From the NCBI RefSeq assembly GCF_030013595.1, contig NZ_CP122770.1: a stretch of 64,000 nucleotides of DNA, one strand, 5' to 3'. A program made the translations under genes and the position numbers. This DNA is from Escherichia coli (GTDB lineage: Bacteria; Pseudomonadota; Gammaproteobacteria; Enterobacterales; Enterobacteriaceae). Under the pieces are notes generated by a model. That model was not told where the DNA came from and did no database searches. It saw only the letters and a program-made list of their open reading frames with translations. Below are positions 15,247-36,441 of the stretch, piece after piece. Each line of letters starts with the position of its first letter. The stretch's first letter is position 1.

Positions 15247-15441
15247 CAGGATCACCCGGTCAGTGCACAGAGGGCGGGTGGCGAAGACTCCGGTGACTGC
15301 TCCCCGCCCGCATTGGGCGAGGATTCTCGGCGGTTCTTCGCTGACTGCACCATACCTCCCAGACAAGACTGTTCGGAATATATCGCTCTTACTGGGGGAG
15401 CAGTAAACTAAAAATGAAAAGTATTATTCCTGACTGGAATT

Positions 15442-15723
15442 TTATGGCCACTTCTGTGCGGTATGCAACACGCGCAGGACATACACTTTTCCCCACTGGC
15501 TGTCGACCTCATAAACCAGAACAAAATGGGGGTGAATAACCAGTTCCCGGGTTCCTTCCACACGACCGTTGCGACCTTTATACGGCTGCCCGGCCAGGCT
15601 GCTGGCTGAATAACCAATCCGTTCGTCCAGTTCAATGGCGGCCATCAGGTTCTGCTCCGCAATGTACTCACGAATGCGCTTCCTGTCCTGGCTGGCCAGC
15701 ATGGTCCAGAATATCTCCATCAT
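15442..15723 (-). CDS. ParE/RelE-family type II toxin
   Basis: 93-aa protein ending ..GTRELVIHPHFVLVYEVDSQWGKVYVLRVLHTAQ, typical of ParE/RelE toxins; 4-bp overlap with the upstream antitoxin gene. Confidence 0.8.
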   Translation of the reverse strand: MMEIFWTMLASQDRKRIREYIAEQNLMAAIELDERIGYSASSLAGQPYKGRNGRVEGTRELVIHPHFVLVYEVDSQWGKVYVLRVLHTAQKWP

Positions 15724-15989
15724 TTATCGGAAACCTTCCTGCTCATTTCATCCCGCCATGCAGCGGCAGAAGATTCGACCATGTCATGGGGAAGCACATC
15801 GCCGCGCTCGAGTTGCTGACGTCCTGCCGCAACCTGGTCACGGAACCAGGTATTATGCTGCCGTTCAACGGTCTGGCGCATAAAATCCCGAATTAACTGA
15901 GAGCCATTACGGTCCATGCTTTTTGCAGCGGCCATAAAAGCATCCTTCAGTTCAGCGTCGATTCTTAAACTCATATTAACCTGTGCCAT
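15720..15989 (-). CDS. RHH-type antitoxin (ParD/RelB-like) of the ParE/RelE pair
   Basis: 89-aa protein with N-terminal MSLRIDAELKDAF RHH-like segment, directly upstream of and overlapping the toxin gene. Confidence 0.75.
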   Translation of the reverse strand: MAQVNMSLRIDAELKDAFMAAAKSMDRNGSQLIRDFMRQTVERQHNTWFRDQVAAGRQQLERGDVLPHDMVESSAAAWRDEMSRKVSDK

Positions 15990-16599
15990 TTATCACCTCG
16001 TCATTACTACGTATATACACAGTATATAACGATTCAGATATCGTCACCAGGATATGCCGCGCCAGCGGCATGGAAGGCGGCACGCTGTGGTTACATGTGA
16101 TACCGGAGTAAAACCGCCGAAGCCCGGCGTCAGCCGGTACTGATTGATAGATTTCACCTTACCCATCCCCAGCCCTGCTAAGCCATACCCGCTTTCAGCC
16201 ATGAGACAGTTTCTGTGCGCGGTCGGAGTGGTCCCGACGAGGGTTTACCCGAAGTCGGGGCGTATCTCCGCGTTAGCGGGCCGTGAGGGCCGCTTACGAG
16301 CGTGTACTGAGGACTTCCAGCCAGAAGACTGGCAGCGATGACAATGTAGTTACAACATTCATAATTAAAAGCGATGTTGTTCCCGCCCTTCGGGCGGGGG
16401 CGGCCTCGCTTTTCAGTTATGAGGGGTGGGCACGGTGCTGCGTTTGTGTGGTGTTTTTTATTCCTGATGTTTTCGCGGTGGTTTCAGAACGGTGAGGTTC
16501 GGGGCCCGCGCGTTAGCGTGGGAGGTGCTTTTAGATTCTGAGCGGCGCGGCCTTGGCCGCTGCAAGCGAAGGCCTCTTTGTGTTTGTTCACGGTGGTTT

Positions 16600-16896
16600 C
16601 AGAGATAAAGACTTTCCCTGCGGCGAAGCAACGCAGGGGATTAAATAATGGGGTTAAGACTATATTGCAGGTTTGCTGTTTCAGGTTTGCAGCTTCTTAA
16701 AGTTTTTTGTTTGCGGATTTATGTGGATAACTGAAACAACGTGGCCACGTTCTGATGACTGATGCGTGGTTTTATGGGCAGATATGCCCCTCTGAGGGGA
16801 TTTAAGGTGATTACTGCGGATTTTGGGCTGAGCGGAACCAGCGCCGAAAGCCCCGGAGGGGCTGGTGATGATTCAGTGCTGAGGGAATGGTGCTGT
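16600..16896 (-). other. IncI1-type replication origin region (CIS/oriV) downstream of repZ, with a DnaA box
   Basis: DnaA box TGTGGATAA at 16721-16729 (complement of TTATCCACA); GC-rich hairpins (AGCCCCTCCGGGGCT, CCCCTCAGAGGGG) directly after the repZ stop; position matches ori location in IncI1/IncB replicons. Confidence 0.5.
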
Positions 16897-17928
16897 CTAG
16901 TGCGGCGGTGGGGCAGCCAGCGTCAGTTCAAGCTGACGCAACTCCCTGATGGCCAGTCGCTTCAGATGGTCATCGGAACAAAAATAGGCTTCATCCGGCG
17001 GCAGACGCTTCCTGAGATATTCTGCCATCTCATGAATCTGCTGGTCGGCAGGCAGTTTCTTCAGGCGTCTGGCGCGCTTACTGGCTGCTGCTTTCGCACG
17101 ACGGTGTTTCAGCGCATCCTGACTGCGCTGCAGATACCAGCGTTTTCTGGCCGCATGTACGGAGATATCTTCATCCTCACGCAGAACACCTTCCCGAATG
17201 AGCTGCTGGCGGATTTCACTTTCACGCAGTCGTTTCTGCTGCTGTTCGTGAAGTTTTACCATGTCGACGCCCAGCATCTGCCAGCCTGCCGGTGTTATCC
17301 AGACGTAACGAGGCAGACGCTGGCGGGTTTCACGGTCCCACAGGGTTTCATCTGAAACACCCAGCACACCAAAACGTACCTGTTCGGCCAGCAAACGGGA
17401 AAGGCGGGAGACCGTCACTTCCAGTTCCGGAATAACCTTCCCCTTGCTGTCTTTCGGGCTGATTTCTCTGGCCAGACGGGAAACACTCATGCCTACGGTA
17501 TGTGTGCCCGCATCACTGAAGCTGACCAGAACCGGCCAGACGGCATCGAGGAGGCGTTGTTTTTCCGGACGGAAAGCATATTTGCGACCGGCATACGTTC
17601 GTTTCTGCACGTAAAAAGGATGCAGAGACATGTGCATGCGCAGGCTCTGCTCGCCGGTCACCGGGTCCTTTTTCACCAGACGGTTGTAGGCGTGCCCGAG
17701 CTGCCCGCTCAGCGCCTTATAGCGCTCAGGACGATACCAGGACGGATTTTCGCATTTGGGTTTGGTGGAGTGCTCACCACGACGACGCTTCGTGCGCTTC
17801 CTTTCCGGTTCAACCAGGAAAGTGGTCGCCCTTCCCGCTTCATAGTCTTCCCAGAAACGGATCTGCTCTTCGGGTGCTAACTGACTCCAGTGTACTGCGT
17901 TATATGGAGTATTCTTCAGACCTGCCAC
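16897..17928 (-). CDS. repZ: RepZ replication initiator (IncI1/IncFII RepA1 family)
   Basis: Characteristic RepZ sequence (..GLKNTPYNAVHWSQLAPEEQIRFWEDYEAGRATTFLVEP...); no in-frame ATG near the 5' end, so the start is placed at the GTG at 17928 next to the repY stop; exact start uncertain. Confidence 0.9.
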   Translation of the reverse strand: MAGLKNTPYNAVHWSQLAPEEQIRFWEDYEAGRATTFLVEPERKRTKRRRGEHSTKPKCENPSWYRPERYKALSGQLGHAYNRLVKKDPVTGEQSLRMHMSLHPFYVQKRTYAGRKYAFRPEKQRLLDAVWPVLVSFSDAGTHTVGMSVSRLAREISPKDSKGKVIPELEVTVSRLSRLLAEQVRFGVLGVSDETLWDRETRQRLPRYVWITPAGWQMLGVDMVKLHEQQQKRLRESEIRQQLIREGVLREDEDISVHAARKRWYLQRSQDALKHRRAKAAASKRARRLKKLPADQQIHEMAEYLRKRLPPDEAYFCSDDHLKRLAIRELRQLELTLAAPPPH

Positions 17929-18005
17929 AAGCTGTCGCTTATGGCGGAGCGATTGTGCCGTGTATTTATACACTGCACAGGGTTGAATCTCTGGTACGGT
18001 TTCAT
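17916..18005 (-). CDS. repY: RepY leader peptide (29 aa), translationally coupled to repZ
   Basis: ATG at 18005, MKPYQRFNPVQCINTRHNRSAISDSLWQV, stop TGA at 17916-17918 overlapping the repZ 5' region, as expected for the IncI1 repY-repZ arrangement. Confidence 0.7.
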   Translation of the reverse strand: MKPYQRFNPVQCINTRHNRSAISDSLWQV

Positions 18006-18019
18006 TATACTTTACCCGT

Positions 18020-18091
18020 ATTCTGTGAGGCCCCCACTATCTTTCGTCGTTCCGCCAAGTTCGTAAGAAAGATAGTGGGGGTTTTCCTTTT
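18020..18091 (+). ncRNA. inc: Inc antisense RNA (replication-control countertranscript) with terminator hairpin
   Basis: Perfect 15-bp stem CCCCCACTATCTTTC / GAAAGATAGTGGGGG (18031-18081) with loop containing CCGCCAA (complement of the rep-mRNA rUUGGCG loop), followed by TTTTCCTTTT, on the strand opposite the rep mRNA leader. Confidence 0.55.
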
Positions 18092-18378
18092 ATGGCTTCC
18101 GGAACATCTTCAGTCTTCTGACTTACTGCCCGTACATGCCATCTCTCCTGAATGCCTTATGGCGCATTCTGCCGTCCGGCTTTCGCCGGTTTGCTCCACA
18201 GAGTGCCACTCTCTGCACAGCTAATAACAGCCGAAATATACCCGCTTTACGTTAATTTGAAAAGCATTACAACGATCTCTTCTCTTCCAGTGCCTCCTCA
18301 CTGATACCTCTAATAAGTTAATCTTGACCTACGTCAAAAAAATAAAATCTATTTTTAAAAGCAGATTTTTCTGCTTTA

Positions 18379-18527
18379 GATCTTTCTTTTGGATTAAAAG
18401 ATCGACTTTTGTCCTACTCACGATCATTTATCTTACAACCGATCTACCTAACAGAATAATATTCTGTTTTAATGCAATTAAACGATCTAAATAACCTTTA
18501 AAAAATCATTTTGTAGATCATTCGATC
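18379..18527. promoter_or_regulatory. Cluster of seven GATC (Dam) sites upstream of the rep promoter
   Basis: GATC at about 18379, 18400, 18422, 18441, 18484, 18517 and 18524 within 150 bp; near-palindrome AACAGAATAATATTCTGTT at 18451-18469. Confidence 0.3.
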
Positions 18528-18624
18528 GTAAATAGAATAATTCTTAGATGATAAAACCATTTGTTACACAACCCGCCAATTGTGTAACAACAGCCTCTAC
18601 AAGAGCATATTTGTTCATATGTTC

Positions 18625-18745
18625 GTCAGAACTGCGGATTGTCTGGACGAGGGTCAGACACCGTTTCGTGCATATGGACCAGCATGTTCGAACGCCACAA
18701 AGCAGAAGCATCATGCCTGGATCGCTTCGGCGCGGAGCGTTAAGT
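18625..18745 (+). repeat. Conserved leader element, copy A (hairpin plus GGCGCGGAGCGTT 3' motif)
   Basis: Roughly 120 nt alignable with the copies at 19690 and 39418; preceded by the palindrome TTGTTACACAA-N8-TTGTGTAACAA (18561-18590). Confidence 0.5.
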
Positions 18746-19081
18746 TTTGACGCTTTTTTGTATGTTTTTTAAGCTGTTAGTTGACTCGGTGCGTTATACT
18801 AAGTACCCTTTACTGGTCACAGGCAAAACTGTGATCGGGCGTAGGAACCCGCGTAGTCATCGTCGGCGCAGAAGTTAATTTCTTCATTTGGCGTCGTTTT
18901 TTGCCATACCATAAAGACAGGAACTTGTATTTCTTGTCGTCATCTATGGTAGCTCAGGCGGGGCAGGCATTAGCCTGGCCGGTTTCCGATGACGCCGGTA
19001 TTCCTACCCCCGTCTGGGCTATCACCAATGAGCGTAGGAACTCGGTGATAGCGTTTTTAGTTGTCATCGGAGACCTTTGCT

Positions 19082-19369: not shown

Positions 19370-19689
19370 ACAGGTGTCCCCATTAAAGGGGACACTTTCA
19401 TGGAAATTGCATTTTGCACTTTACAGGCGATCCCAAATTGATAAACATAAACACCAAGCACAAGTTACTTTAATAAAGCAAATCACTTCAGACGGTGTCC
19501 CAGTTATTTGTATCTGGCTCATGCCCGATATATGGCGATCTTACTCTGAACTGACGTGCTGATGTTTTATTTCGCGTATCACAATACTGTGCCACTGTAT
19601 TGCTGATATTAGTGCTTAGCCGTTCTTTATCTGTGAGTTCGCCAAATCACCGATACAGAACGTACTAGAGTCTGCTGGTTATATGCCTG

Positions 19690-19806
19690 TCAGAACTGCA
19701 GTTTATCCAGATACGGGCTGGATACTGCTTCAGACATATGATTTAGCATATTCGCCTGACATCGCAAAATCGTCCATCATGGATCGGTTTTGCGCGGAGC
19801 GTTGAA
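19690..19806 (+). repeat. Conserved leader element, copy B, immediately upstream of the NusG-like gene
   Basis: Alignable with copies A and C; ends ..CATCATGGATCGGTTTTGCGCGGAGCGTTGAA directly before the GTG start at 19811. Confidence 0.5.
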
Positions 19807-35286: not shown

Positions 35287-36441
35287 ATGCCGTCTCCACG
35301 CATCCGTAAAATGTCCCTGTCACGCGCACTGGATAAGTACCTGAAAACAGTTTCTGTTCACAAGAAAGGGCATCAACAGGAGTTTTACCGGAGCAATGTT
35401 ATCAAGCGATATCCCATTGCCCTTCGGAATATGGACGAAATAACAACCGTTGATATTGCTACATACAGAGACGTTCGTTTAGCAGAAATCAACCCCCGAA
35501 CGGGTAAACCCATTACAGGTAATACTGTACGTCTTGAACTCGCCCTTCTGTCATCTCTGTTCAATATTGCTCGTGTTGAATGGGGAACCTGTCGTACTAA
35601 CCCGGTTGAACTGGTTCGCAAGCCGAAAGTATCCTCCGGACGAGATCGCCGGCTAACGTCTTCAGAAGAACGTCGCCTTTCTCGCTATTTCCGCGAAAAA
35701 AATCTGATGTTGTATGTCATTTTCCATCTTGCCCTTGAGACAGCCATGCGGCAGGGCGAAATACTGGCCTTACGTTGGGAGCACATTGATTTGCGCCACG
35801 GTGTGGCTCATTTACCTGAAACCAAAAACGGTCACTCACGGGATGTTCCTCTGTCCAGACGTGCCCGTAACTTTCTTCAGATGATGCCCGTTAATCTCCA
35901 CGGCAATGTTTTTGATTACACCGCATCCGGCTTTAAAAATGCCTGGAGAATAGCCACACAACGACTTCGCATCGAGGACCTGCATTTTCACGATCTACGG
36001 CATGAAGCAATAAGCCGCTTCTTCGAACTGGGTAGCCTGAATGTAATGGAGATTGCTGCAATATCAGGACATCGTTCCATGAATATGCTGAAACGGTATA
36101 CTCATCTTCGTGCATGGCAACTGGTCAGTAAACTTGATGCCCGCCGGCGGCAGACACAAAAAGTGGCAGCATGGTTTGTGCCGTATCCTGCCCATATCAC
36201 GACCATCAATGAAGAAAATGGGCAGAAAGCGCATCGTATTGAGATCGGTGATTTTGATAACCTTCACGTCACTGCCACAACGAAAGAGGAAGCAGTTCAC
36301 CGCGCCAGTGAGGTTTTGTTGCGTACACTGGCCATTGCAGCACAGAAAGGCGAACGTGTCCCATCTCCCGGAGCGTTACCTGTTAACGACCCTGACTACA
36401 TTATGATTTGCCCTCTGAACCCGGGCAGCACCCCGCTGTAA
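35287..36441 (+). CDS. rci: Rci, shufflon-specific tyrosine recombinase
   Basis: Tyrosine recombinase catalytic residues (R..HDLRHE..H..Y); start MPSPRIRK gives 384 aa; directly adjacent to the shufflon. Confidence 0.9.

Follow-up and report, generated by a model that had tools for sequence, protein, structure and literature searches.

A conserved cluster of Dam sites around a perfect Lrp consensus, upstream of the transfer regulators of IncI1-type plasmids, as a candidate methylation-sensitive control region

What might a dense group of Dam methylation sites do when it lies between the replication gene of a conjugative plasmid and the regulators of its transfer? The question is raised by a 64-kb stretch of DNA (the window, meaning the whole stretch analyzed) identified as an IncI1-type conjugative plasmid, in which a cluster of GATC sites is placed between repZ, on the minus strand, and traA, traB, and traC, on the plus strand. 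The original prediction, made from the sequence alone, had proposed that the cluster could act as a SeqA- or Dam-dependent switch coupling replication or tra expression to methylation state. We found that the cluster rings a perfect consensus site for the regulator Lrp, that the arrangement is conserved upstream of traB in distant relatives, and that several of its GATCs sit in boxes like those of the pap fimbrial switch. We propose that a Dam-sensitive Lrp complex controls a transfer-regulator promoter whose upstream region is the cluster, a reading for and against which we judge the case to be evenly balanced.

The density first described, seven GATCs in about 150 bp, was borne out when the exact sites were located: the cluster holds 7 in 149 bp, and the next-richest 150-bp segment of the 64 kb holds 3. 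As had also been claimed, this is far above chance. When the 166 GATCs of the window were placed randomly, 1 trial in 5000 gave as many as 7 in 150 bp, and shuffling the local 29%-GC segment (18340-18600) gave six or more GATCs in none of 20000 trials. Because the plasmid is otherwise GATC-poor (166 sites observed versus 260 +/- 13 expected from dinucleotide shuffles, all 100 of which scored higher), the cluster is an exception to a general avoidance of GATC. The sites are spaced by 21, 22, 19, 43, 32, and 8 bp and are helically phased, with a resultant length of 0.86 at a period of 10.5 bp versus 0.15 to 0.63 at three other periods; as in SeqA-type clusters, two or more GATCs on the same face fall within about 31 bp. 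Among the GATC flanks within the cluster there is no repeated GATC-containing heptamer or hexamer and no single iterated unit. The palindromes that the original prediction had mentioned are present, one within the cluster and one to its right, and the placement of the cluster between the rep control region and the transfer regulators was upheld.

The palindrome within the cluster, AACAGAATAATATTCTGTT (18451-18469), is 19 bp long, and its core matches an Lrp consensus at every position. For E. coli Lrp, both the consensus YAGHAWATTWTDCTR, obtained by systematic evolution of ligands by exponential enrichment (SELEX), and the motif AGAATwwwATTCT have been reported (PMC5554404); the palindrome fits the second as well as the first. 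The perfect consensus match is the only one in the 64 kb, where 0.02 would be expected, and 2 of 100 shuffles held one.

To ask whether this association extends beyond IncI1, relatives were gathered through TraB, not through the motif, by tblastn against plasmids and by a TraB-profile scan of species-representative genomes. The lineages retrieved have TraB proteins only 50 to 64% identical, and the alignments used here (A1 and A3) have about 65% mean DNA identity. Five relatives carry a GATC cluster 140 to 320 bp upstream of traB: two IncK2/Z plasmids (L002 and L003), a 54-kb E. coli plasmid (L006), and contigs from Citrobacter werkmanii (L017) and C. amalonaticus (L018). Their clusters hold 4 to 7 GATCs, and each relative has exactly one perfect Lrp consensus, always within the cluster. 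A single Lrp site within a GATC cluster is likewise found in each of L001 to L003, L006 to L009, L017, and L018. Conversely, nine TraB loci without the cluster (L004, L005, and L010 to L016, from Yersinia, Pectobacterium, Erwinia, Pluralibacter, Enterobacter, other Citrobacter, and an unclassified Enterobacterales bacterium) are also without the Lrp site.

Conservation within the cluster is concentrated on a few elements. AGATC (18399-18403) and the palindrome are invariant in all six lineages of A1 and A3, except that the palindrome differs between lineages, and only at consensus positions 4, 12, and 15, precisely those at which the consensus is degenerate. The four non-Citrobacter sequences of A1 all share ACGATC (18420-18425) and AACGATC (18482-18488) without change. 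Measured from the palindrome center, a GATC at -56.5 or -57.5 is common to all six lineages, and nonuniversal GATCs occur at -35.5 or -27.5, at +26.5 or +36.5, and from +58.5 to +67.5. The GATC of the ACGATC box has moved to -27.5 in both Citrobacter lineages, with L006 carrying both -35.5 and -27.5, and the Citrobacter counterpart of the +26.5 GATC lies one helical turn outward, at +36.5. Despite this turnover, the GATCs stay about 4 to 5 bp from +/-31 and +/-62, roughly symmetric around the palindrome.

A similar pattern was seen at closer range. A 531-bp query across the cluster region matched 1,439 PLSDB plasmids at 90 to 100% identity, the majority of them conjugative plasmids of Escherichia and Salmonella. 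Among 15 distinct IncI1-type copies, 1 of 43 positions is variable in the motifs, compared with 18 of 106 elsewhere in the cluster span (Fisher p = 0.0095); the palindrome does not vary at all, and GATC tetramers are kept while neighboring bases vary. A scan of metagenomes in which only the -57 GATC and the palindrome were fixed returned chance matches with 1 to 3 GATCs within +/-110 bp (92 loci), as opposed to the 4 to 7 GATCs, in a few fixed layouts, of family members. Five metagenome loci with 4 or 5 GATCs (L025, L049, L059, L060, and L064) were rejected as further modules, being GC-rich, coding-like chance matches.

The flanks of several GATCs resemble those of pap. As a reference, the papI-papB intergenic region of CFT073 was retrieved with a probe that it matched at 99.4% identity; its GATC boxes are GACGATCTTTTATGCTGT and GGTTAAAAGATCGTTTAAA, with GATCs at 608 and 710, 102 bp apart. 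The window sequence GGaTTAAAAGATCG, around GATC 18400, is identical to the CFT073 proximal box GGgTTAAAAGATCG at 13 of 14 positions, the window boxes at 18394-18404 and 18478-18488 each match CFT073 pap boxes at 11 of 11, and the L002 box ACGATCTTTTATGCTGT matches the distal box at 17 of 17. At the level of sequence, then, GATCs of the cluster lie in conserved pap-type flanks. Farther left, the second Lrp-like site at -93, AAAGCAGATTTTTCTGCTTT, scores 12 to 13 of 15 at an equal offset in the window, L006, L017, and L018 and can fold into an 8-bp hairpin in the window; L002 and L003 instead have a pap-distal-type box, ACGATCTTTTATGCTG, about 3 bp outside this position, with a GATC at -96.5. If real, the flanking Lrp sites would be pap-like rather than consensus-like.

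On which side, then, does the cluster act? The original prediction allowed coupling to replication or to tra expression; we favor the tra part and disfavor the rep part, since the cluster stays with the tra module. pESI-type megaplasmids match the window only from 18284 rightward and so keep the cluster with traA, traB, and traC but have no adjacent I-type rep, which argues for a tra-side role. The Rep proteins beside the cluster also differ between lineages (RepZ is 22% identical to the IncFII-type RepA of L018, and L002 is also of the IncFII type), which argues in the same direction. So does what follows the cluster: a promoter-like element and then, in IncI1 and IncK2/Z, a homologous traB leader. 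The promoter-like element is in register in five of the six lineages by inspection, and GATCs 18516 and 18524 fall in the -35/spacer region of the predicted rightward promoter of the window. The leader is present twice in the window, the second copy at about 19630-19790, just upstream of traB, and the two copies flank a module that contains traA and a C4-like antisense RNA gene. Both keep CTGTCAGAACTGC as well as a GGATCGnTT...CGCGGAGC motif, which has a GATC (18720 and 19782), near the traB start. The single IncK2/Z leader and the two IncI1 copies suggest an ancestral order of cluster, promoter, leader, and traB, followed in the IncI1 lineage by insertion of the C4-RNA/traA module into the leader, an event that duplicated about 150 bp.

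A Dam-dependent regulatory role, as originally predicted, is plausible because the cluster is conserved and far beyond chance. As the reader of methylation, however, we favor Lrp over SeqA, since the cluster rings a perfect, conserved Lrp consensus and is flanked by pap-like GATC boxes. The sequence shows the elements themselves, with their statistics, conservation, and geometry; from it we infer Lrp binding, its sensitivity to methylation, the promoter controlled, and the sign of the effect. In the model, the cluster would be the upstream regulatory region of a promoter for traB and traC, which in IncI1 would be reached from that promoter through the C4-like RNA/traA module. The presumed high-affinity site at 18452-18466 would nucleate an Lrp oligomer that contacts weaker flanking sites about every 31 bp, at -93, -62, -31, +31, and +62; each of the four predicted flanking positions from -62 to +62 has one or two GATCs, several of them in boxes of the type bound by Lrp in pap. 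Lrp would bind less well once Dam had methylated these GATCs and, where bound, would keep Dam away from them, so that promoter occupancy would follow the methylation state and could be reset in hemimethylated DNA, whether newly replicated or newly entered by conjugation, much as at pap and at traJ of pSLT. The sign is a guess by analogy with pap: Lrp on unmethylated proximal sites might repress, and Lrp confined upstream might activate. A stronger version, in which the region is a heritable, pap-like ON/OFF switch for conjugation competence in IncI-complex plasmids that needs no PapI-type cofactor, we consider possible but doubtful.

Several observations weigh against this proposal. The main evidence against a role for Lrp comes from pESI, which has the same cluster: there, deleting lrp did not significantly alter pilV mRNA (PMC5013300, as data not shown). 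Because that was a bulk measurement under one condition, it would be blind to a switch confined to a subpopulation. In the plasmid pESBL, transposon insertion sequencing (TnSeq) did not single out the cluster (PMC12672017); the strong phenotypes lay about 260 bp away, in a 270-bp region termed "Hft" (35394-35663), where insertions raise transfer about 20-fold. Individual GATC sites appear dispensable because natural IncI1-type variants lack them: a 1-bp insertion (CGAATC) destroys the 18422 site in L089, and a change from GATC to GACC destroys the 18516 site in L140 and L141. The predicted rightward promoter is weak, matching the consensus at 8 of 12 positions and falling below the threshold of the promoter scan, and within the IncI1 family its -35 is polymorphic, its -10 being invariant. 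Lrp sites can be mimicked by AT-rich palindromes, and when the flanking offsets were scored with the Lrp consensus, none was good except -93. No homologue of PapI or PapB was found in the 64-kb window (tblastn with CFT073 queries; best E values of 0.25 and 0.05). Separately from these points, a literature search for Lrp, Dam, or SeqA in I-complex or IncI plasmids found no paper linking them.

Other readings of the cluster must be set against the Lrp proposal. SeqA multimers might bind the phased GATCs on plasmid DNA left hemimethylated by replication or by entry into a recipient, transiently silence the rep and/or tra promoters, and delay remethylation. SeqA is known to recognize hemimethylated GATC pairs, and the cluster offers the highest GATC density in the window by a wide margin, the helical phasing described above, and a pair, 18400/18422, that is conserved at 21 to 22 bp in four lineages; moreover, repZ mRNA in fresh pESBL transconjugants was unexpectedly lower than in donors (PMC12672017). 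SeqA would, however, leave unexplained the conserved central Lrp consensus, the pap-type flanks, the rough symmetry of the GATCs, and the co-occurrence of cluster and Lrp site, and as a full account we think it unlikely. The two models are compatible, as SeqA could lengthen the time that the DNA spends hemimethylated. More improbable, in our judgment, is an operator array for another protein, either a plasmid regulator such as TraC or H-NS-type silencing of AT-rich curved DNA, with the GATCs belonging to that protein's repeat or being incidental. The 29% GC content and phased A/T tracts of the local DNA (18340-18600) would suit such an array, and H-NS is active at pap too, but the GATC flanks are not one repeated unit, the palindrome varies exactly as the degenerate positions of the Lrp consensus allow, and GATC tetramers are kept while adjacent bases are not.

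Two further alternatives would assign the cluster to replication. In one, methylation state would act through it on the divergent repZ promoter and thereby on copy number. Apart from pESI, every plasmid-borne lineage examined does have, to the left of the cluster, a rep gene with a homologous antisense-RNA leader; the likely rep start has a CRP/FNR-type site about 100 bp upstream of it; and transposon insertions in the nearby Hft region raised pESBL copy number about 2-fold. Those insertions left repZ mRNA unchanged, however, and about 115 bp separate the rep -35 from the first GATC upstream of it. The cluster persists without an adjacent I-type rep in pESI-type plasmids and beside differing Rep types elsewhere, and the homologous DNA that always comes after it is the traB leader. 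The probable origin lies on the far side of repZ: a perfect DnaA box there fits an origin downstream of rep in this replicon family, and the stretch 15250-17860, which spans repZ and the origin side, is free of GATC. We rate control of repZ as a poor prospect, on a par with the operator array. GATC clusters are a hallmark of origins and packaging-type sites, and SeqA at oriC is a documented case, so a secondary origin, priming, or packaging-type site resembling the GATC repeats of P1 oriR, pac, or oriC was also considered. We rejected it as highly improbable: no DnaA box (TTWTNCACA) occurs within 1.5 kb of the cluster, the nearest being the perfect one beyond repZ; the GATC flanks are not iterated; searches of the cluster gave no Rfam match to a structured RNA at E <= 1 and no tandem-repeat-like signal; and the cluster is conserved beside traB, not beside any replication function.

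The rep promoter that had originally been placed next to the cluster did not stand. The element named, TTGACG...TATTAG at 18300-18337, is polymorphic in the family, including its -10, and its TTGACG forms the right half of a palindrome, TTGAC-N4-GTCAA, that is conserved; the element is probably a CRP/FNR-type operator instead. The repZ promoter is probably TTTTCA-17-TATATT, which has one variable column in the IncI1 family (18244, in the spacer) and whose -10 (AATATACCC when read on the plus strand) does not vary in A1 and is kept in distant relatives. The most polymorphic stretch of the intergenic region is 18290-18333.

The CRP/FNR-type palindrome, TTGACCTACGTCAA, is the sole TTGA-N6-TCAA in the window. 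Its offset from the Lrp palindrome is -127.5 or -128.5 in each of four lineages, namely the window, L006, L002, and L003, and inspection of the equivalent stretch left of the cluster shows TGTGA-N6-TCAA in L017 and L018. In pESI, TraB and FNR activate pil gene expression and transfer (PMC5013300), and the unmapped site through which pESI transfer depends on FNR may be this palindrome. To the right of the cluster, the 11-bp inverted repeat folds as RNA with -13.5 kcal/mol on the plus strand (z = -4.2) and -20.3 kcal/mol on the minus strand; since the strong minus-strand fold is followed by a U-run, it is terminator-like on that strand. The repeat could be a terminator of leftward transcription before the cluster and rep or a stem-loop of the 5' leader. 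Changes at its closing pair within the family are not compensatory.

The pESBL Hft region might have been thought to be the GATC cluster itself. This was rejected, as a gapless alignment maps Hft to 18790-19059 of the window and the cluster to pESBL 35926-36074. Hft is the only mapped cis regulator; the TnSeq study left it unexplained and did not identify it as an antisense RNA system (PMC12672017). It coincides with an Rfam C4/P4-CI-type antisense RNA (18942-19029; 77.5 bits) plus a1b1-type targets: the words TTCCTAC and CGATGAC of the C4-like RNA are complementary to GTAGGAA and GTCATCG at 18841/18856 and again at 19034/19063, the latter set adjoining the traA Shine-Dalgarno sequence, and the 10-nt sequence GCGTAGGAAC is repeated at 18839 and 19032. 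The annotated "ash family protein" coding sequence that overlaps the C4-like RNA gene is probably spurious. Homology of the cluster to phage DNA was rejected, the phage matches being confined to the C4-like RNA (18943-19058). Two short open reading frames (ORFs), 18324-18494 on the plus strand and 18544-18714 on the minus strand, were rejected as coding; they are not credible because 1-bp indels separate lineages across the cluster.

The two loci without a cluster that were inspected have other genes at this position. In Yersinia ruckeri L004 (3116-4712) and Pectobacterium L005 (3360-4022), the interval from rep to traB contains a PAS-domain gene, apparently a different regulatory module occupying the equivalent position. 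L004 has an additional helix-turn-helix regulator gene in the same region and a 28-bp palindrome with two GATCs directly upstream of traB. The features of the window and the GATC layouts of the relatives are collected in Table 1.

Table 1. Elements of the region between repZ and the transfer regulators. Positions are those of the window; GATC centers (last five rows) are in bp from the center of the Lrp palindrome.
Feature	Position	Strand	Remarks
Seven Dam (GATC) sites	18379..18527	none	At 18379, 18400, 18422, 18441, 18484, 18516, 18524
Lrp consensus match YAGHAWATTWTDCTR	18452..18466	none	15/15; core of 19-bp palindrome; minus strand reads CAGAATATTATTCTG
pap-proximal-type GATC box TTAAAAGATCG	18394..18404	none	GATC at -57.5 from palindrome center; invariant in A1 and A3
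ACGATC box	18420..18425	none	GATC at -35.5; kept in four lineages
pap-type GATC box TTAAACGATCT	18478..18488	none	GATC at +26.5
Second Lrp-like site AAAGCAGATTTTTCTGCTTT	18358..18377	none	13/15; centered at -93 (3 x 31 bp)
CRP/FNR-family palindrome TTGACCTACGTCAA	18324..18337	none	128.5 bp left of Lrp palindrome
Predicted sigma-70 promoter toward tra regulators, TTGTAG-16-TAGAAT	18511..18538	plus	Predicted start near 18545; read by eye from in-register sequences
Counterparts of predicted rightward promoter			L002/L003, TTGCCA-16-TAATAT; L017, TTCATA-17-TAATAT; L006, TTGACT-16-TAAACT, 20 bp further
11-bp inverted repeat TTGTTACACAA-N8-TTGTGTAACAA	18561..18590	none	Would lie in 5' leader of predicted rightward transcript
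traB-type leader, first copy	18600..18760	plus	Homologous to single IncK2/Z leader joining cluster to traB (alignment A4)
traA, traB (NusG-like), traC	from about 19082, 19790, 20598	plus
repZ promoter candidate TTTTCA-17-TATATT	18235..18263	minus	From promoter scan; adjoins module, outside it
PK-repZ regulatory pseudoknot	17941-18089	minus	Rfam match, 194.5 bits
repZ ORF	16897-17973	minus
Perfect DnaA box TTATCCACA	16722-16730	minus	About 170 bp past repZ stop codon
GATC centers, window (IncI1)	-78.5, -57.5, -35.5, -16.5, +26.5, +58.5, +66.5
GATC centers, L006	-57.5, -35.5, -27.5, -14.5, +26.5, +66.5
GATC centers, L017	-66.5, -57.5, -27.5, -14.5, +36.5, +67.5
GATC centers, L018	-66.5, -57.5, -27.5, -14.5, +36.5, +59.5, +67.5
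GATC centers, L002 and L003	-96.5, -56.5, -35.5, +25.5

IncI1 and related I-complex plasmids rank among the principal carriers of extended-spectrum beta-lactamase and other resistance genes in E. coli and Salmonella. Their transfer is mostly off, yet they spread fast through new hosts, which is poorly understood. If the heritable version of the proposal were true, competition between an Lrp oligomer and Dam over the 4 to 7 GATCs upstream of the traB/traC promoter, set when the DNA is hemimethylated, would give rise to a transfer-competent subpopulation and to transient high-frequency transfer by new transconjugants. A methylation-sensitive Lrp switch ahead of the transfer activators would make transfer respond through Lrp to nutrient state and through the FNR/CRP-type site to oxygen or carbon status, and would tie it to each plasmid copy's history of replication or entry. 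Control of the pap type would extend from fimbriae to a second, unrelated conjugation system, and a methylation-sensitive switch, if confirmed, would be a new way to control plasmid spread.

How does the cluster compare with known systems? It shares with the SeqA-sequestered clusters at oriC and the dnaA promoter a high GATC density, helical phasing, and pairs within 31 bp, but it is not at an origin, and it has a central Lrp consensus and pap-type boxes, which SeqA does not need. At agn43, OxyR and Dam compete for several promoter GATCs, giving heritable ON and OFF states; there, in contrast, OxyR is the regulator, a single operator contains the three GATCs, and Lrp plays no part.

The likeness to pap, where Lrp and Dam compete at GATC sites, is closer. 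The boxes TTAAAAGATCG and AAACGATCT, and ACGATCTTTTATGCTGT in IncK2/Z, are nearly identical to those of pap; GATCs are embedded in Lrp binding positions (predicted here) spaced about three helical turns apart; the promoter-proximal GATCs overlap the -35/spacer; and the DNA is AT-rich, with divergent flanking genes. A possible further parallel is that the center of the CRP/FNR-type palindrome lies about 214 bp upstream of the predicted rightward start; in pap, CAP acts from about -215, a figure given in the title of Weyand 2001. On the other hand, pap has two GATCs about 102 to 103 bp apart and the cluster has seven (4 to 7 across lineages); its invariant outer pap-like boxes are 84 bp apart (82 to 84 in other lineages) rather than 102 bp; it has a central perfect Lrp consensus, whereas the best score in pap is not above 12 of 15; and its output would be conjugation regulators in place of fimbriae. 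With this different spacing, its seven sites, and neither PapI nor PapB in the window, the cluster is not a member of the pap family.

The remaining comparison is with traJ of pSLT, where Lrp acts upstream of a conjugation-activator gene and binds in competition with Dam methylation of a GATC that its site contains. As Camacho and Casadesus reportedly found in 2005, a PapI-type cofactor is not involved in that control. The present plasmids differ in family (MPF_I, I-complex), in activators (the NusG-like TraB and TraC are unrelated to those of pSLT), in having 4 to 7 GATCs rather than one, in the lack of DNA homology, and in the negative outcome of the sole lrp test, in pESI. The pSLT system ties transfer gene expression to hemimethylation after replication, and what the cluster has in common with it, as far as the letters go, is a predicted Lrp site with GATCs upstream of the promoter of a transfer activator.

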